Of a stretch of DNA of 64,000 nt, positions 20,565 to 42,073 are shown one piece after another. The translations under genes were made by a program, and so were the position numbers. The stretch is taken from positions 17,785 through 81,784 of the forward strand of contig JAFWFN010000019.1 in the NCBI GenBank assembly GCA_017515565.1, in the 5' to 3' direction. Position 1 is the stretch's first letter. Every line of letters starts with the position of its first letter. Below the pieces are notes generated by a model, which was not told the origin of the DNA, did no database searches, and was given only the letters and a program-made list of their open reading frames with translations. Source of the DNA: Halomonas sp. GTDB lineage: Bacteria > Pseudomonadota > Gammaproteobacteria > Pseudomonadales > Halomonadaceae.

Positions 20565-21263
20565 TTAATTGGCATCGTGCAAACGGGCGCGTAAACGGCT
20601 AACGGCCTGACTATGCAGTTGGGAGACACGGGACTCGGTAACCCCCAGCACAGCGCCCACCTCTTTTAAGTTCATCTCTTCTTGGTAGTACAGCGCCATT
20701 AACAGCTTTTCTCGCTCTGGCAGCGCCTCAATCGCTTCAATCAAGGTTTGACGTTGTTGGGCGTCCAACAACTGGTCGAAGAGCAAATTGCCAGCGCCGC
20801 TACTAGGCTCACCGCCCTCTGTCACCAGTTCTTCAAACGGCAGCAGTTGGCCGCTGTTGGTGTCATTGAGTAGCTGCTGATAGTCGCTGAGCGGCATCTC
20901 TAAATCACGCGCGATTTCCCCCTCTTCGGGAGCGCGACCTAGCTGTTGCTCCAGCCGCCGCACCGTCTCATCCATCGCCCTGGCCGAACGCCGCACGCTA
21001 CGGGGTAGCCAGTCGCGCGTGCGTAGCTCATCCATCATGGCGCCACGAATTCGCTGGCTGGCAAAGGTGGCAAATGTCGCGCCTTGGGCCGCATCAAAGC
21101 GCCCAAGGGCTTCTAATAACCCCACCATGCCCGCCTGGATAAGATCATCTAGCTCGATGCTCGCGGGCAACCTCACCTGCAGCGTTAAGGCCTGACGTCT
21201 CACCAGTGGCATGTATTGGGTTAACAGCTCACTCTGTTTGATCCTGCCTTGTGCTGTATACAT
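20565..21263 (-). CDS. fliA: Flagellar sigma factor sigma28
   Basis: DDLIQAGMVGLLEA, RIRGAMMDELRTRDWLPRSVR, LGVTESRVSQLHSQA. Confidence 0.98.
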   Translation of the reverse strand: MYTAQGRIKQSELLTQYMPLVRRQALTLQVRLPASIELDDLIQAGMVGLLEALGRFDAAQGATFATFASQRIRGAMMDELRTRDWLPRSVRRSARAMDETVRRLEQQLGRAPEEGEIARDLEMPLSDYQQLLNDTNSGQLLPFEELVTEGGEPSSGAGNLLFDQLLDAQQRQTLIEAIEALPEREKLLMALYYQEEMNLKEVGAVLGVTESRVSQLHSQAVSRLRARLHDAN

Positions 21264-21290: not shown

Positions 21291-21740
21291 TTACTGGTAA
21301 TTCACGATGGCTTGCAGCCCCTGTACCCGCACCGGCCGTTGGCCAGGCGTTAAGGTAAAACGAAAGTACAGCGGCGCATCGGCGTGCTTTCCGGCTAATG
21401 CCATAGTGGAACCCCGCATGCTGTTAAGTGGGACGCACTGCTCAGGGTGACATAGCCAAGCATTTACTGGCGACGTAGGTGGCGCCTCATACCGCCACTG
21501 TATCCGATCGATCACTGCGTTTCCTACTTGCGCTGCGCTGGGCGCCACGATGGGGTGGCTGCGGCTGACCCTGTCGCTCATGGCGACCATGACACTGGGA
21601 ACTTGGCTGCTCCAACTGCCAGGCGCCGCCTGCACGCTACTTGCCAACCCCATCGCGATGAACGCCGCCGTAATGCTCACCGTGATCACCTTTAAAATGC
21701 TCCTGCCCTGCCTACTTTTTCGCTGCATGGGTACTCCCAA
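21291..21740 (-). CDS. flhE: Periplasmic flagellar protein FlhE
   Basis: Signal peptide; GSWS...WRY...AWLCHPEQCVPL...F.F...QAIVNYQ pattern; position after flhA/flhF. Confidence 0.82.
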   Translation of the reverse strand: MGVPMQRKSRQGRSILKVITVSITAAFIAMGLASSVQAAPGSWSSQVPSVMVAMSDRVSRSHPIVAPSAAQVGNAVIDRIQWRYEAPPTSPVNAWLCHPEQCVPLNSMRGSTMALAGKHADAPLYFRFTLTPGQRPVRVQGLQAIVNYQ

Positions 21741-21808: not shown

Positions 21809-22375
21809 TTACCGGGCAAGCAACAGCAGTTCTGTGTCTAAATAACCTGCGGCAGCTTCTCGCAAGTTATCGAGTAATCCTTGGCGTGGCAAGTGGGGCT
21901 CATGCAGCGCCAAAAGGCGCTTTGGGCCTTTGTTGTCATGCACTTGTCGCAAAACTCGGTACATCGGCATAAACGCATCCGCATCGCTACTTACCCACAA
22001 CGCCCACCGCGGGTAACGCGCCACCAGTAATGGCAGATTGGCTGTAGCAGGGTCAACTAGGTGAATGTCCCAGCCATCTGGGTCGCCTGCCCAGCGGCGC
22101 CCCAACGCCGACCATTGGCTGAGGCGACTTCTTACCTTGTTAACCTGGTGCTGATGGGTGGATAAGCCCACCACCACCAGCGGCTGTTTCGGCGTGGGGG
22201 GTGCCTCTACTGTCGGCACCATGGCGGATGCAGCATAAACGGAAGCCGCTTCCTTTGAGACGGGCTCTGCGGGGACTGGCTCATCCGGCAGAGTATCTTC
22301 GGGCATTTCTCCGCGCTGCTGACGCTGTAAATCCGCCCATTTACGCAGCCCCGCTGCCTGGTCTTGGCTGCTCAT
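21809..22375 (-). CDS. FlhG/FleN-related protein lacking the ATPase P-loop
   Basis: N-terminal DQAAGLR motif; sits directly after flhF (ATGA overlap); no KGGVGKT; C-terminal half weakly resembles FlhG. Confidence 0.65.
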   Translation of the reverse strand: MSSQDQAAGLRKWADLQRQQRGEMPEDTLPDEPVPAEPVSKEAASVYAASAMVPTVEAPPTPKQPLVVVGLSTHQHQVNKVRSRLSQWSALGRRWAGDPDGWDIHLVDPATANLPLLVARYPRWALWVSSDADAFMPMYRVLRQVHDNKGPKRLLALHEPHLPRQGLLDNLREAAAGYLDTELLLLAR

Positions 22376-24546
22376 ACCATGCCCTCTCGGCTCACGCTAC
22401 CTAGCTGACGAATAGCATCGCGGGCCATAAAGGCATGCACTAATCCGTCAAGTAAGGCGGTATCGCGCCGTTTTCGCTGGGTGCCTAGCAGCAGCATCAG
22501 GTCGGTACGCAGAGCAAGAGCAGCGTCATCGTCGGCACTGTCCAAATGCCCTGCTACGGCGGCAGCGCCGCTGGCCATGAGCAGGCGTATTTCAGCACTG
22601 ACATCGCCACTGTCGGCTTCTTTAAGCTGCTGCCATGCCCGCTTGGTCAGCGCGGTGACCCCTTCGCTTTGCAGTTGGGTAGCCAGTAAAGAGAGTGCAT
22701 CAGCGCCTAATCGAGCAGGGCTTAACCAGTAGCGCCGTGCAATACGCTTAGCGCTTTCGGGGTCACGAATCTCTCCGTACCACGCCAGTAGAGCATTGCC
22801 TGACGCGTCGGTCACTTCTGCGTAGGCACTCCACAACTGCATAGGCTGCCCACGAAAACGCACGCTTATATGGTGCGTAAGCGTGCTATCAATAAATAAC
22901 TGGCGCTGGGCACAACGCGCGCCCTGGAAGTATACCCGCTGACTGGCAGGCACCAAGCTGACCCAGGTCAGGTGTTGGGCTTCCAACCATGCCAGCGCTT
23001 CGGTGTCGGGGAGTGCAGGCAGCAAATGGACGGCGATGCCGTGTGCATCACTTTGTGTTGCCAAGCGAGGCTGCCAACCGGCGGGCTGGCGATGCTGCAG
23101 GCAGGGTAGCGCCGACCATGCCCCGTTAGCATCTAGCCCAATATCTGGCATTGACCAGTCACAGCCACGCTCATTGCGGCGGGGGGACCATGCCATCCCT
23201 AGGAGGTTATCTGCCGGGGGCGTGTCAGCGAGTAAACGATCAAGCCGCCCATCCTGCACTGCGCTTGGCAGAGCGGCGATATCCCATACGGCCTCTAAGC
23301 GGGCAAAACCCGCCACTCGCTGACGCAGGCGCGTCAATACCGATGAGAGACGACGCCCTTGGCCAAGCACATCCCGAGACCAGCGGGGCAGACTTACCGG
23401 CGCGGAAGCAGGCTGGCTGGCTAACGTGGATTGGCTGTCCAGCGCCTGATCGATAAGCGCCGCGGGGTTCGCCACGGCCATATCTTCGGGCACTTGCTGA
23501 CCGTGGGAGCCAAACAGCACACGCATCCCATGGCGCATGACAATATCAAGCACCGGCGCTAAGCGTCCGGCTTCGTCCTGCTTGGTGATAATACAGTCAT
23601 CTAGCTCGGCGCCCGCCGCACGGGCGGCTTGCCGATAGCGTAGTACGACTTCTTCGAGCGTTTCCGGCTGGCTGGCAGCGTTTAATAGCAGTACTAACCG
23701 CACGGTCGATTGCCCCCCCTGCAGGTGAGCGATTTGCTCAATAACCCGCTGGTCACGCTGGCTCATGCCGACCGTATCAATGATTACCCACTGTTTACCC
23801 TGTAGCCGACCTAGCAGATCATCAATGGGCTGCTCCGCATCGAGGGCATACATCGGCGTATCGAGCAGACGCGCATATATCCGCAGTTGCTCGTGGGCGC
23901 CGATACGGAAGCTATCGGTGGTGACAAGCGCCACCGGCCGCGTACCGTGGCGCATCACAAAACGTGCCGCGAGCTTAGCGGTGGTGGTGGTTTTACCTAC
24001 GCCCGTTGGGCCCACCAGCGCGACAATGCCCGTTTGGTCAAAAAAGCTGTTTTCCTGGTTAAGCACCGGTAAGCGCGCCATCAGCTGTTCGCGCAGCCAT
24101 ACAAGCGGCTGGTCACTGTCGGCAGAGGCTAGTACCAGTGAGTCCGGCAGCCCCGCCAGCACTTCGCTGCTTAACTCATCGCTAAAACCAACGCGCGCTA
24201 GCAGTTGGCGCAGCCGCGTGGGCGTATCCGCCGCTGCAGCAGCGGCAGGTGCTTGCTGTTGGCGGGTCAGCAGCTCACGCATATCCTGCATTTCACGCAG
24301 CAAACGCTCGCTCATGGCCTGAAGGGGGTCGGAGGCAGGCAGCGAGAAAGCGGGGGGAGAGGCGGGAGGCGGCTCTGGCGTGGGGGCTGGGTCAAAATGA
24401 TCGACCGCTTCATCCGCCATCGCCAGAATCTCAACGCCGCCCTCGGTACGCCGGTTAGCAAGAATCAAGGCGTCATCGCCCAATGCCTCGCGTACTTGGC
24501 GCATCACATCACGGCTATTTGCTCCGACAAAACGTCTAACACTCAT
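22372..24546 (-). CDS. flhF: SRP-type GTPase FlhF with long C-terminal extension
   Basis: MSVRRFVGANSRDVMRQVREALGDDALIL; G1 GPTGVGKTTT; TDSFRIGAHEQL; DTVG; TKQDE; GQQVPED; then ~350 extra residues. Confidence 0.93.
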   Translation of the reverse strand: MSVRRFVGANSRDVMRQVREALGDDALILANRRTEGGVEILAMADEAVDHFDPAPTPEPPPASPPAFSLPASDPLQAMSERLLREMQDMRELLTRQQQAPAAAAAADTPTRLRQLLARVGFSDELSSEVLAGLPDSLVLASADSDQPLVWLREQLMARLPVLNQENSFFDQTGIVALVGPTGVGKTTTTAKLAARFVMRHGTRPVALVTTDSFRIGAHEQLRIYARLLDTPMYALDAEQPIDDLLGRLQGKQWVIIDTVGMSQRDQRVIEQIAHLQGGQSTVRLVLLLNAASQPETLEEVVLRYRQAARAAGAELDDCIITKQDEAGRLAPVLDIVMRHGMRVLFGSHGQQVPEDMAVANPAALIDQALDSQSTLASQPASAPVSLPRWSRDVLGQGRRLSSVLTRLRQRVAGFARLEAVWDIAALPSAVQDGRLDRLLADTPPADNLLGMAWSPRRNERGCDWSMPDIGLDANGAWSALPCLQHRQPAGWQPRLATQSDAHGIAVHLLPALPDTEALAWLEAQHLTWVSLVPASQRVYFQGARCAQRQLFIDSTLTHHISVRFRGQPMQLWSAYAEVTDASGNALLAWYGEIRDPESAKRIARRYWLSPARLGADALSLLATQLQSEGVTALTKRAWQQLKEADSGDVSAEIRLLMASGAAAVAGHLDSADDDAALALRTDLMLLLGTQRKRRDTALLDGLVHAFMARDAIRQLGSVSREGMV

Positions 24547-24614: not shown

Positions 24615-26696
24615 CTAGCGCCCACCCACTACGGTGGTCACCCGCAGCGTACGGTCATCTGGCACTTCGGCCTGAGACATCACCACCATATGACGCATGC
24701 GTCGGCGCAGGAAGCGCGACAACACAGCACGTAATGAATGCTGCACCACCAGCACTGGGGCTTCCCCACTGGCTTCGTGCTGTTCTAGCGCTTGCTGTGC
24801 CTGATTCATCAGGGTGTCTGCTAAGCCTGGCTCCATGGCGCCGTTGCCGTTCATCGCCTGAATCAGCACTTGCTCTAGCTGGGCATCCAGCCCCATCACG
24901 TTAAGCGTTTCTTGCCCGGCAAACCATTGCTGAGTGATGGCGCGGCCCAGCGCAATGCGCACTAGCGCAGTGAGCTCATTAGGATCTTTCTGCTGCCCAG
25001 CGAACTCCGCCAGGGTATCCAGCACAGTGCGCATATCGCGAATAGAAACATCTTCATCCAGCAGGTTCTGCAGGATGCGCTGAAGCACCGTCAGGGAGAT
25101 CGCTTTTGGCACGACTTCTTCCACCAGCGATTTTTGATCATCACCGAGCTTATCCAGCAGTTTTTGCACTTCCTGGCGACCGAGCATTTCCGGCGAGTGG
25201 CGGTGCAACAGGTGATTTAAATGGGTGGCAATGACCGTACTCGCATCCACCACCGTATAGCCATACACCTGGGCGTGTTCACGCTGACTGGCATCAATCC
25301 AGATAGCCGGGAGGCCAAAGGCGGGCTCTTGAGTGGGCGTACCCTGTAGTTCGCCAGATACCTGCCCTGGGTCGATAGCCAGCCACTTGCCTGGCTGTGC
25401 CTCGGCACGTCCAATCTCCGCGCCCTTCATCGACAGTACGTAGGTGTTGGGGGAAAGCTCCAAGTTATCGCGGATATGCACAACAGGGGGCAGAAAGCCG
25501 ACCTCCTGAGCAAACTTTTTGCGCACGCTTTTAATCCGGCCCAACAGCTCACCTTTCTGGCGCGAATCCACTAGCGGGATTAAGCGATGTCCGACTTCGA
25601 GACCCAAGGTATCCACTAACTGGACATCTTCCCAACTCGCTTCCGGAGTTTCTTGAAGTGGTGGAGGGGCCGCAGCAATCTCCTCCTTGACCAGCGCCCG
25701 GTCTTTTTGACGGATCAACAGCCATGCAAGCCCGGCAAGCAGCGCCGTAAAAATCAGGAAAACCAGATTGGGCATGCCGGGCACCATGCCCAATAGCCCC
25801 ATAACGATGGCGGCTAAAATCATAACCTGGGGGTTAACGAACAGCTGGCTGATCATTTGCTGACCAACGTCCTGATCGGTATTTACCCGCGACACCGTGA
25901 CACCCGCTGCGGTTGAGATCACCAGTGCCGGAATCTGGGCGACCAAGCCATCCCCAATGGTTAATAGTGTGTAGGTACGGGCAGCATCACCGAAGTCCAT
26001 GCCATGCTGCATCATGCCAATCAGCAGGCCGCCGATAATATTAACCACCATAATAACCAAACCGGCCATGGCGTCGCCGCGTACAAACTTACTGGCGCCA
26101 TCCATTGAGCCGTAAAAATCGGCTTCTTGGGCGACTTCTGCACGACGCTTTTTAGCGTCCTCTTCACCAATTAACCCAGCGTTTAAGTCTGCATCAATGG
26201 CCATCTGCTTGCCGGGCATGGCGTCCAGCATAAAGCGGGCGCCAACTTCGGCAATCCGCCCAGCGCCCTTGGTAATAACCATGAAGTTGATAATAACCAA
26301 AATCAGGAAGACCACTAGGCCAACCGCAAAGTTGCCGCCTACCAGAAAGGTGCCGAACGCTTCGATAACTTTACCAGCGGCATCGCCCCCTTGATGCCCT
26401 TCCATGAGTACCACCCGGGTGGAGGCAACATTGAGCGATAGTCGCAGCAAAGTGGTGAACAGCAGCACCGCTGGAAACGCCGCAAAGTCCAGCGGCTTTT
26501 GCGCAAACATGCTGACCAACAGCACCATAATGGCCAGGGCAATATTGAAGGTGAAAAGCAAATCCAGCGCGAAGGGCGGCAAGGGCAGAATCATCATGCC
26601 CAAAATCATTAGAATCAGCAGCGGCCCAGCGAGCAGCTTCATGCGCACATCGCCCATCCAATCGCGCTGATTGATCAACTGGCCTAAGCCCTTCAT
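24615..26696 (-). CDS. flhA: Flagellar export gate protein FlhA
   Basis: RIAEVGARFMLDAMPGKQMAIDADL, FYGSMDGASKFVRGDA. Confidence 0.99.
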   Translation of the reverse strand: MKGLGQLINQRDWMGDVRMKLLAGPLLILMILGMMILPLPPFALDLLFTFNIALAIMVLLVSMFAQKPLDFAAFPAVLLFTTLLRLSLNVASTRVVLMEGHQGGDAAGKVIEAFGTFLVGGNFAVGLVVFLILVIINFMVITKGAGRIAEVGARFMLDAMPGKQMAIDADLNAGLIGEEDAKKRRAEVAQEADFYGSMDGASKFVRGDAMAGLVIMVVNIIGGLLIGMMQHGMDFGDAARTYTLLTIGDGLVAQIPALVISTAAGVTVSRVNTDQDVGQQMISQLFVNPQVMILAAIVMGLLGMVPGMPNLVFLIFTALLAGLAWLLIRQKDRALVKEEIAAAPPPLQETPEASWEDVQLVDTLGLEVGHRLIPLVDSRQKGELLGRIKSVRKKFAQEVGFLPPVVHIRDNLELSPNTYVLSMKGAEIGRAEAQPGKWLAIDPGQVSGELQGTPTQEPAFGLPAIWIDASQREHAQVYGYTVVDASTVIATHLNHLLHRHSPEMLGRQEVQKLLDKLGDDQKSLVEEVVPKAISLTVLQRILQNLLDEDVSIRDMRTVLDTLAEFAGQQKDPNELTALVRIALGRAITQQWFAGQETLNVMGLDAQLEQVLIQAMNGNGAMEPGLADTLMNQAQQALEQHEASGEAPVLVVQHSLRAVLSRFLRRRMRHMVVMSQAEVPDDRTLRVTTVVGGR

Positions 26697-27859
26697 GACT
26701 GCGCCTCACTGCCACCGGCATTGGGGCCGGGACTATCCATTTCCGGAGGAACCGGCAAATTATCAGGGGTGGGGGGCACCTCGCCTCCTTGTTGTGCAAC
26801 ATGCTTTAGGCGGTACGCCCAGGCCATCACTTCCGCCACAGCGGTATACAGTTCCGCAGGCACTTCGGCCTCTAAGTCCACGTGATGATACAGGGCGCGG
26901 GCCAAGGGCGCTGCCTCCAATCGTGGCACGCCCGCTTCTAAACCAATTTCACGGATACGTGCCGCCACCGCATCGGCCCCTTTGGCGACTAGCCGAGGCG
27001 CGCCCATACTGCCTTCCTGATACCTGAGCGCAATCGCATAGTGGGTAGGGTTGGTAATAATAACGTCAGCATCCGGTACTTTGCTCATCATGCGGCCACG
27101 CGCCATCGCCTGCTGTTGCTGACGAATGCGGCCTTTTACATGGGGGTCGCCCTCTGACTCTTTATGCTCTCGCTTTACCTCTTCCTTGCTCATGCGCAGC
27201 TTTTTAGCATTGCTCCACAGCTGGAAAGGCACATCGATGAGGATGACCACAATCAGCGATAACACAATTAACCCAGCGGCTAACGCGGCCATATTTAGTG
27301 CAGTGACCAGCGCCTGCTGAATAGGCAGATCCATCAGCCCCATAAACGTGCCGATATTAACGTACAAAAAGGTTGCCGCGACGCTCCCCACCAGCACCGA
27401 TTTAGCAATCGCTTTGGCTAGCTCCACCAGTGCCTGAGGCCCGAATATGCGCTTCACCCCTTTAACAGGGTTGAGCTTTGAAAGCTTTGGCTGCATTGAT
27501 TTTGCCGATACCAGCCACCCCCCCAGCAGCGCAGGTGCCACCAACGCCACCACCACGAGGAGTACAAACAGCGGAATCATGGCAAACAGCGTGCGCTGGC
27601 CAAGATCCAGGGCATTCACCAACATGGGAGTGCTTTCCATTACTTGGCGTCGCTCAAACAGGAATGCCCTCTCCATAACCATTCCCAACTGGTCATAGAG
27701 CATCTGCCCCATGCTCCAAAGCCCTATCACGCCCCCCAGTAGCAGCATAAAAGTGGTCAGCTCTCGGGAGCGGGGAACCTGACCCTCTTCGCGCGCTTTA
27801 TCCAAGCGTCTGGGGGTGGCCTCTTCGGTTTTTTCCTGGTCGCTGTCGTTGTCTGCCAT
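26693..27859 (-). CDS. flhB: Flagellar export switch protein FlhB
   Basis: EKTEEATPRRL; autocleavage motif ITNPTHYAIAL. Confidence 0.99.
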   Translation of the reverse strand: MADNDSDQEKTEEATPRRLDKAREEGQVPRSRELTTFMLLLGGVIGLWSMGQMLYDQLGMVMERAFLFERRQVMESTPMLVNALDLGQRTLFAMIPLFVLLVVVALVAPALLGGWLVSAKSMQPKLSKLNPVKGVKRIFGPQALVELAKAIAKSVLVGSVAATFLYVNIGTFMGLMDLPIQQALVTALNMAALAAGLIVLSLIVVILIDVPFQLWSNAKKLRMSKEEVKREHKESEGDPHVKGRIRQQQQAMARGRMMSKVPDADVIITNPTHYAIALRYQEGSMGAPRLVAKGADAVAARIREIGLEAGVPRLEAAPLARALYHHVDLEAEVPAELYTAVAEVMAWAYRLKHVAQQGGEVPPTPDNLPVPPEMDSPGPNAGGSEAQS

Positions 27860-41198: not shown

Positions 41199-41744
41199 CT
41201 ATGTTTCTGTACCGGCCGCTCCGCGTTGGGCTTTACGTGTTTTCCCGGCACGTGAAGGGGGCTGGCAAATACCGCATACATATCCGTGAAACGGGCTATG
41301 CGCATGGGCAACAAATCGCCCCTCACACCGGGTACATGTATTTAGCTGCAGCAGATCACTTTCAAAAAAACGCACCAGTGTCCACGCTCGCGTTAAGCCC
41401 AGCACTGGCTCCACGTCTTCAAGCGCTATTTGCTCTTCGTAAAGTCGATAAGCTTTAACGAACGCATCAATACGTTCGCAGCAGGTATCTTGTTGTAAAC
41501 TTGCATAAATATTATAAAAAAGTGATGAGTGCACGTTAGGCAACCAGGTAACAAACCAGTCTGCCGAAAAAGGCAACATCCCTTTTGGAGGCGACATGCC
41601 ACGCACTTCTTTATACAGCTTAATTAGGCGAGTACGGCTTAGATCCGTTTCCGTTTCCAACACCTGTAAACGTGCACCTAACTCAATCAGTTCGATTGCC
41701 AGCTGTACTTGATGCATTTCATCAACCAAGCTTTTCTGGCTCAC
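41199..41744 (-). CDS. flhC: Flagellar master regulator FlhC
   Basis: [29 protein letters not shown], zinc ligands CTRC...CGIC. Confidence 0.97.
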
Positions 41745-42073
41745 TCTGCCCCTCCTTTGGGTAGTGAATCGAACGGTTCGCAGGCTGATAACAGCGATGC
41801 ATGCAATCCCGAAAGCCCTTGATCTCTGGGGTTTTCCATAATTTGACGCAAGCGCTGCCCGCTAGTTTGGCTAAACCGACATACCAATTGATTGGTACGC
41901 GCCAGCTTCGTTAACTGCCAAGCATTAAGTGAAACGAGCAAATCTGCCAGTTCGCTATCAATTTTCAGGCGAAACATGGCTGCCTCTCGATCTTCACTCA
42001 GTAGACGTTGGGCAAGAAGTAAGTACGCTAAGTTTAATTCTTCAATTTCATCGAGAAAGTTTGATTGGCTCAT
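41741..42073 (-). CDS. flhD: Flagellar master regulator FlhD
   Basis: [26 protein letters not shown]...[10 protein letters not shown]. Confidence 0.96.

Follow-up and report, generated by a model that had tools for sequence, protein, structure and literature searches.

In this work, we analysed a 64,000-nucleotide (nt) stretch of the genome of a Halomonas sp. (GenBank assembly GCA_017515565.1, contig JAFWFN010000019.1, positions 17,785 to 81,784 of the forward strand; hereafter the window), in which the gene that follows flhF encodes a protein of 188 amino acids (aa), here called mini-FlhG. With a probability of roughly 0.72, this protein is a miniaturised descendant of the flagellar regulator FlhG, and most likely an ATP-independent activator of the FlhF GTPase, a function that we infer. 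The assignment is supported by the position of the gene in the flhG slot and its coupling to flhF, a constrained DQAxxLR helix, a profile homology specific to FlhG, and FleN/FlhG structures as the best structural matches; the role of GTPase-activating protein (GAP) for FlhF is suggested by a single element, the DQAxxLR motif. The initial annotation, made from the sequence alone, had described a miniature FlhG remnant that keeps the activator motif and has lost the ATPase; position, motif, profile homology and structure agree with that description, and the ATPase motifs are absent.

FlhF and FlhG constitute a conserved switch for flagellar location and number, and in current models FlhG cycles between an ATP-bound, membrane-associated dimer and a monomer. 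FlhG, also named YlxH, FleN or MotR, is a MinD-type ATPase for flagellar number and placement, with structures from Geobacillus (4RZ2/4RZ3) and of P. aeruginosa FleN (5J1J/5JVF/7EJW/8P53). Its DQAxxLR enhancer helix stimulates GTP hydrolysis by FlhF through the Gln, turning the active FlhF dimer into the inactive monomer (PMC12826062), and the Q9A substitution in Vibrio FlhG abolishes FlhF activation in vitro (bioRxiv 10.1101/2022.03.19.484964).

The features of the gene and its product are listed below, with coordinates referring to the window.

21809..22375, minus strand: mini-flhG open reading frame (ORF), 188 aa plus stop, from the ORF listing
22372..22375, minus strand: ATGA overlap between the mini-flhG ATG (22375-22373) and the flhF TGA (22374-22372), read from the sequence
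22382..22388, minus strand: Shine-Dalgarno-like GAGAGGG within the flhF 3' end, 6 nt 5' of the mini-flhG ATG, read from the sequence
22372..24546, minus strand: flhF, 724 aa (TIGR03499, 223 bits; SRP54 domain at aa 174-369)
22310..22375, minus strand: putative N-terminal enhancer (FlhF-activating) helix, aa 1-22, with D5-Q6-A7-x-x-L10-R11; helical over aa 4-22 in the AlphaFold2 model
22196..22309, minus strand: disordered P/A/E-rich tether, aa 23-60, gapped and variable in an alignment of 37 sequences; predicted local distance difference test (pLDDT) score 48-64
21812..22195, minus strand: putative FlhG-derived alpha/beta core, aa 61-188, (beta-alpha)x4-beta, without nucleotide-binding motifs; the chain stops at the last strand (beta5)
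22148..22186, minus strand: strand beta1 (PLVVVGL) and the loop at the deviant Walker A position, aa 64-76, from alignments

Architecture of the protein and its homology to FlhG

The mini-flhG start codon overlaps the flhF stop codon and is preceded at 6 nt by the Shine-Dalgarno-like sequence, an arrangement that fits the translational coupling of the 188-aa ORF to flhF proposed in the initial annotation. The N-terminus of the protein, MSSQDQAAGLRKWA, matches DQAxxLR exactly; a translation of the window in all six frames contains this motif a single time (0.11 occurrences expected), and mini-FlhG holds the sole DQAxxLR near the N-terminus of any ORF of at least 100 aa in the 3.76-Mb genome. 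The P/A/E-rich linker that had been described after the motif corresponds to the tether, with 8 Pro, 7 Ala and 6 Glu in its 38 residues and predicted disorder. The deviant Walker A had been reported missing, and indeed a motif scan found neither GxxxxGK[ST] nor KGG anywhere in mini-FlhG: at its position, the loop after beta1 contains no Lys and is variable both in length and in sequence (STHQHQ here, PGSGAAQ or SGAGGGD in relatives). In the AlphaFold2 model of the full protein (mean pLDDT 82.8), a helix (aa 4-22) and a disordered stretch (aa 23-60) precede a folded domain; the domain modelled alone reaches a pLDDT of 91.3 and a predicted template modelling score (pTM) of 0.86. Scans with Pfam and NCBIfam matched no family to mini-FlhG at E <= 1, including the ParA/MinD-type models CbiA, AAA_31 and ParA, and four other mini forms had no Pfam match even at E <= 10.

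Homology to FlhG was assessed through the genes found downstream of flhF in other Pseudomonadota, which served as hhalign targets; the Ralstonia and Hydrogenophaga targets were handled separately, as a mixed target alignment scored lower through misalignment. The profile of 77 family sequences matched that of 7 betaproteobacterial FlhG with a probability of 93% (P = 3.3e-7), pairing mini-FlhG residues 103-184 with a part of FlhG made up of the Walker-B strand and the three strand-helix units that follow it. With 20 forms in which the spacer after the helix is short, the same 7 targets gave 95.7% (P = 8.4e-9), and Ralstonia FlhG gave 92.7% (P = 4.4e-7) over 135 collinear columns running from the DQA helix via beta1 to the last strand, with beta1 of mini-FlhG collinear with 'RRVLVIG' of Ralstonia FlhG; against canonical FlhG/FleN the register was unchanged (P = 6.9e-4). 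The helix alone matched FlhG profiles with P ~1e-4. Homology beyond this short motif, whose absence was one of the findings that the initial annotation had named as speaking against it, was found: the domain without the helix aligned with beta-type FlhG at P = 3.3e-6, in the same register as against canonical FlhG. In Ralstonia FlhG (258 residues) the alignment ends near residue 167, and in canonical FlhG (286 residues) near residue 226. Thus, the C-terminal segment WVSSDADAFMPMYRVLRQV...LDNLREAAAGYLDTELLLL pointed out in the initial annotation is present and aligns significantly with FlhG, but its counterpart is the central part of FlhG, which begins with the Walker-B strand and extends to the strand preceding the C-terminal helices, and not the C-terminal half.

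Controls were clean. Reversed targets gave P = 0.16-0.56, the highest scores among 120 column-shuffled targets were 18.7 and 20.9, where the real targets scored 62.0 and 49.4, and MinD of ten Halomonadaceae gave P = 0.34-0.79 with the family profiles. Consequently, the family resembles the FlhG lineage specifically, and most strongly the beta-type members that lack a P-loop, and the FlhG/MinD resemblance originally noted holds for FlhG (P down to 8.4e-9) and not for MinD.

Structural comparison pointed in the same direction. Among Protein Data Bank (PDB) structures, Foldseek ranked Geobacillus FlhG (4rz3_A) first for the full model, with five FleN chains among the top 40. For the domain-only model, apo-FleN 5jvf ranked first (E = 1.6e-3, probability 1.00, template modelling (TM) score TMq 0.55), the other FleN/FlhG chains had TMq values of 0.45-0.56, with 0.48-0.56 among the top-ranked FleN/FlhG matches, and all remaining matches were at or below 0.43. 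The alignments span about 200 columns for a query of 131 residues, as expected if internal FlhG segments are missing from it.

Distribution, conservation and genomic context

A search of 5.8 billion proteins retrieved 150 homologues of mini-FlhG, all named 'hypothetical protein' wherever a source name was given and none carrying a Pfam domain; the named homologues all belong to Halomonadaceae (Vreelandella, Halomonas, Halovibrio). The family profile matched 70 of 151 Halomonadaceae genomes, in 11 of 25 genera, each with a single intact ORF, and no frameshifts or internal stops were seen in the family members of these 70 genomes; Kushneria and Salinicola forms escaped the profile and add to this count. 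The slot between flhF and flhE is held in at least five named lineages, namely Vreelandella/Halomonas, 'Halomonas sp. 328', Chromohalobacter, Salinicola and Kushneria, flhE being the next gene after the divergent forms wherever the flank was read. The lengths of these divergent members, all 'hypothetical protein' (Salinicola, 131 aa; Chromohalobacter, 145 aa; Kushneria, 152 aa; 'Halomonas sp. 328', 272 aa), span the family range of 131 to 272 aa. Some 145-aa Chromohalobacter clusters (P0450 and members) bear the UniRef label 'DUF2868 domain-containing protein', which looks spurious, as a Pfam scan at E <= 10 was empty.

In the 37-sequence alignment, M1, D5, Q6, A7, G9, L10, R11, W13 and A14 are each at least 90% conserved, and the last ~125 residues contain 30 invariant positions. 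Within the genus, the ratio of nonsynonymous to synonymous substitution rates (dN/dS) was ~0.03 in the helix and ~0.07 in the domain, as opposed to ~0.58 in the linker; these are rough values from few pairs with saturated dS. Many members, including those of Chromohalobacter and Salinicola, lack the long linker and have a helix-to-beta1 spacer of ~8-15 residues, as in canonical FlhG. At the other extreme, the linker of the 'Halomonas sp. 328' protein (locus L017, 6180-6998, plus strand) has ~120 aa and a duplicated segment (…DDRETAIARTLREMA… / …DDRETAIARALVEIA…).

The family is small and taxonomically narrow, confined to Halomonadaceae with a long FlhF in an FlhDC-type cluster; every surveyed carrier has an FlhF of 711-919 aa. 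In the window, the B-NG part of FlhF is normal, with intact G motifs (GPTGVGKTT, DSFRIGA, DTVG, TKQD, GQQVPED), and aligns with the solved FlhF structures 8r9r and 2px0/3syn. It is followed by a C-terminal extension of ~350 aa (aa ~375-724) without a Pfam match, which a word-based search (query FlhF aa 385-724, nt 22375-23394, minus strand) found in Halomonadaceae only. The possibility that the extension is a fused FlhG ATPase half was ruled out (hhalign P = 0.075-0.73 against FlhG). The long-FlhF model NF011312 (PRK14723, 768 positions) spans the full Kushneria FlhF, as well as the 798-aa FlhF of a Burkholderiales-type genome (L052).

Halomonadaceae with a short FlhF (422-468 aa) present another arrangement. 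In four loci (L084-L087; genomes G059, G004, G023 and G025, genera g3, g5, g23 and g25), flhF is followed directly by fliA-cheY-cheZ-cheA, with no flhG or fleN between flhF and fliA and no DQAxxLR in any frame; the best match to the FleN N-terminus across each of these genomes is MinD, at 36-40% identity. The usual rule is that flhG always follows flhF, and these loci run counter to it.

The neighbouring genes in the window include the following.

21291..21740, minus strand: flhE-like gene, directly 3' of mini-flhG (PF06366 FlhE, E = 4e-17)
20565..21263, minus strand: fliA, sigma-28 (NF005413, 307 bits)
24615-26696, minus strand: flhA, upstream in the same gene run as mini-flhG, from the ORF listing
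26693-27859, minus strand: flhB, upstream in the same gene run, from the ORF listing
41199-41744, minus strand: flhC (FlhC NF009365, 280 bits)
41741-42073, minus strand: putative flhD-like ORF of 110 aa that overlaps the flhC start

The gene order on the minus strand is thus flhB-flhA-flhF-mini-flhG-flhE-fliA, where flhA and flhB are what we take these genes to be by recognition of their sequences; a second stator pair and two cyclic di-GMP enzymes come after fliA. The presence of flhC and the flhD-like ORF indicates that the flagellar system is of the FlhDC type. As listed, the flhE-like ORF begins at a TTG, and its signal peptide (…KVITVSITAAFIAMGLASSVQA) starts past an internal Met; translation therefore probably begins at a codon slightly further downstream, by a few positions. 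Elsewhere in the genome there is no other FlhG or FleN, the nearest P-loop relative being a canonical MinD of 272 aa on contig C69 with Walker A and a C-terminal membrane-targeting helix; no FleQ-type enhancer-binding protein was found in the genome either, only a 237-aa ORF with a weak FleQ-domain match.

Comparison with FlhG of other Pseudomonadota

Mini-FlhG resembles FlhG in that its gene lies immediately after flhF, its N-terminus carries the DQAxxLR enhancer helix, and its core shows homology from the Walker-B strand onwards over three further strand-helix units, with the P-loop strand equated by collinearity. It differs in having 188 aa against about 270-295 aa, in the disordered tether between helix and core found in this genus, and in being matched by no Pfam or NCBIfam model. 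Several elements have been lost: the deviant Walker A with both lysines is gone; ~75 FlhG residues between alpha1 and the Walker-B strand, comprising switch I/II and neighbours, have no counterpart in the hhalign alignments; the position aligned with the Walker B Asp (DIHLVD) is not conserved among the 37 sequences; and the last ~60-90 FlhG residues, with the C-terminal helices and the amphipathic membrane-targeting helix, are missing. MinD, the cell-division paralogue of FlhG, shares the SIMIBI fold class with mini-FlhG distantly, through FlhG; unlike MinD, mini-FlhG has no Walker A, no C-terminal membrane-targeting helix and no detectable profile similarity to it.

FlhG-type proteins encoded after flhF in other groups combine the enhancer motif and the P-loop in various manners. 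Vibrio/Shewanella-like FlhG (L065-L070, L073) has both DQAxxLR and GGKGGVGK[ST]. All 25 Pseudomonadales FleN extracted (L022-L051) have the P-loop and no DQAxxLR, with a few residues ahead of the P-loop strand (e.g., MGSMHPVQVIAVTGGKGGVGKT). In Burkholderiales-type genomes, proteins of 252-297 aa after flhF have DQAxxLR and a degenerate or absent Walker A, which reads GGPAGVGCTT in Burkholderia (L055, 269 aa), SATPQDDKGA in Massilia/Duganella (L054, 266 aa), GAQEQVDD in Ralstonia (L057, 252-258 aa), whose FlhG also has an internal deletion, and ASPAQPARG in a Hydrogenophaga-like form (L071, 256 aa); Hydrogenophaga forms have ~257-269 aa. We take the flagellar systems of Burkholderia, Massilia/Duganella, Ralstonia and Hydrogenophaga to be of the FlhDC type. 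By profile comparison with canonical FlhG (hhalign probability 100, E = 1e-51), these beta forms are unambiguous FlhG homologues, even as the Pfam signal fades from Burkholderia (CbiA, 29.6 bits) to Massilia (13.8 bits), Ralstonia (none) and the mini forms (none). The Burkholderia, Massilia/Duganella and Ralstonia forms are mostly named FlhG, FleN or MinD/ParA in their sources, some being 'hypothetical', and the Hydrogenophaga forms are named 'hypothetical protein'; several P-loop-less beta FlhG are still labelled 'MinD/ParA family ATP-binding protein' in databases.

It is to these P-loop-less betaproteobacterial FlhG that mini-FlhG is most similar, both in profile (P = 8e-9, 4e-7) and in retaining DQAxxLR with a degenerate or lost Walker A. 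Unlike mini-FlhG, the beta forms still have the ~90 residues of the C-terminus ('...FP.S..A..F..LA...' helices), and in most of them the switch-region segment is present too; they are also mostly named in databases, whereas mini-FlhG stops at the preceding strand and is 'hypothetical'. The Halomonadaceae protein is a further and more radical reduction of FlhG, unrecognised by databases. A literature search found no paper on Halomonas flhF, truncated FlhG or P-loop-less FlhG, and a 2025 review of the FlhF/FlhG switch (PMC12826062) does not mention such forms.

Alternative explanations, proposed mechanism and significance

Several results weigh against the descent of mini-FlhG from FlhG or against its role as an FlhF activator. 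No Foldseek E-value reaches 1e-3, and the structural comparison therefore supports the FlhG assignment without settling it; generic Rossmann and flavodoxin-like folds are also among the matches. The beta1-alpha1 segment alone (aa 58-100) showed no significant similarity to FlhG in hhalign, the equivalence of beta1 with the FlhG P-loop strand being drawn from collinearity and spacing. A hidden Markov model (HMM) search against PDB sequences gave chance-level ketoacyl reductase matches only (E about 1) and did not reach FlhG; likewise, a profile search of 1.84 billion representative proteins retrieved 55 clusters, all of at most 272 aa, with no full-length FlhG or MinD among them, so HMM-to-sequence methods cannot bridge the family to FlhG. 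One Halomonadaceae lineage with a long FlhF of 736 aa (G008, locus L083, genus g9) lacks mini-FlhG: flhE begins 4 nt after flhF, and no reading frame of the flhF locus contains DQAxxLR. At least this one background can therefore do without the protein. Finally, invariant Trp, His and Arg residues specific to the family are numerous, which suggests that the protein does more than carry a helix passively.

This last point leads to the alternative that survives best, which we nonetheless consider unlikely: that the protein derives from FlhG and acts mainly as an adaptor or anchor, its Trp-rich core binding the FlhF extension or a C-ring or MS-ring protein, with the helix only tethering FlhF or locking it in one state. 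Many of the 30 invariant core residues do not occur in FlhG (W88, W95, W102, W124, W127, H158, R164, N170), all surveyed carriers pair the mini-protein with a long FlhF, and canonical FlhG contacts C-ring proteins and transcription factors, according to PMC12826062. Nevertheless, the catalytic Gln and the entire DQAxxLR are the most constrained part of mini-FlhG, G008 pairs a long FlhF with no mini-protein, and a long FlhF also co-occurs with a 264-aa FlhG in a Burkholderiales genome.

Considerably less probable is an origin unrelated to FlhG, whereby a flavodoxin/CheY-like domain protein gained the DQAxxLR helix by convergence and settled beside flhF. CheY-like and other (beta-alpha)5 folds do appear in the Foldseek list, including the receiver-like chains 4qpj_C and 4lda_G; for the full model these ranked below FleN in both probability and TMq, and for the domain model they were not in the top 50. 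Such flavodoxin/CheY-like matches would be explained if a MinD-type core cut to the Walker-B, P-loop and next three strands had the 2-1-3-4-5 strand order that we infer for it. The undetectable similarity of beta1-alpha1 and the missing Pfam, NCBIfam and PDB sequence matches, which speak for a convergent origin, stand against the significant match of the helix-free domain to beta-type FlhG in the canonical register, the 135 columns collinear with Ralstonia FlhG, the clear margin by which FleN/FlhG chains have the highest TM scores, and the helix-to-beta1 spacing of the short forms, which matches that of canonical FlhG. A decaying, functionless flhG remnant heading for loss, as in enterobacteria (flhBAE only), is hardly credible, since its total loss in one lineage (G008) and the almost neutral evolution of the linker are opposed by the conservation of the ORF, intact in 70 of the 151 genomes (11 of the 25 genera) as well as in the Kushneria and Salinicola forms, dN/dS far below 1 in helix and core, a confident fold prediction, and the lack of frameshifts or internal stops in the members seen.

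For the preferred reading, a miniaturised FlhG that activates FlhF, the following mechanism can be proposed. Mini-FlhG would be unable to bind ATP, to form the ATP-sandwich dimer or to bind the membrane, and would be made in fixed proportion to FlhF because of the ATGA coupling. Gln6 of its helix would enter the composite active site that the FlhF dimer forms in its GTP-bound state, where it would stimulate GTP hydrolysis and return FlhF to the inactive monomer, so that the lifetime of active FlhF would be set by stoichiometry and not by an ATP/membrane cycle. The conserved Trp-rich core is probably a folding and stability unit that also offers FlhF or a basal-body protein a surface to dock on. 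As to the evolutionary path, the loss of the P-loop is widespread in the full-length FlhG of FlhDC-type Betaproteobacteria, and the loss of the ATPase therefore probably preceded miniaturisation, an order that would agree with the connection to FlhDC systems proposed in the initial annotation: a full-length FlhG already devoid of its P-loop, as in these bacteria today, would have been trimmed further in Halomonadaceae.

As a more speculative and rather doubtful extension, mini-FlhG and the ~350-aa FlhF extension might form a new, nucleotide-independent partner module, in which the core docks on the extension or on a basal-body protein, the tether sets the reach of the catalytic helix, and FlhF inactivation is gated by the assembly state. 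If so, this would represent a living intermediate between the beta-type FlhF/FlhG control and the enterobacterial flhBAE arrangement without FlhF/FlhG.

Mini-FlhG, with its FlhF-activating helix on a minimal FlhG core predicted to be unable to bind ATP or membrane, can be regarded as a natural separation-of-function allele conserved across several genera. Having lost the membrane anchor, the ATP-binding site and roughly half of the fold, it constitutes a natural test of FlhG without its ATPase, and makes it possible to ask experimentally whether FlhG can be reduced to GTPase activation and what its ATPase cycle contributes beyond that. The assignment also supplies an identity for a family of unannotated 'hypothetical proteins', and extends a degeneration series that runs from canonical FlhG to P-loop-less beta FlhG, mini-FlhG and no FlhG. 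PMC12826062 asks how FlhF and FlhG came to be absent from FlhDC-type (enterobacterial-type) systems, and the series is relevant to that question.

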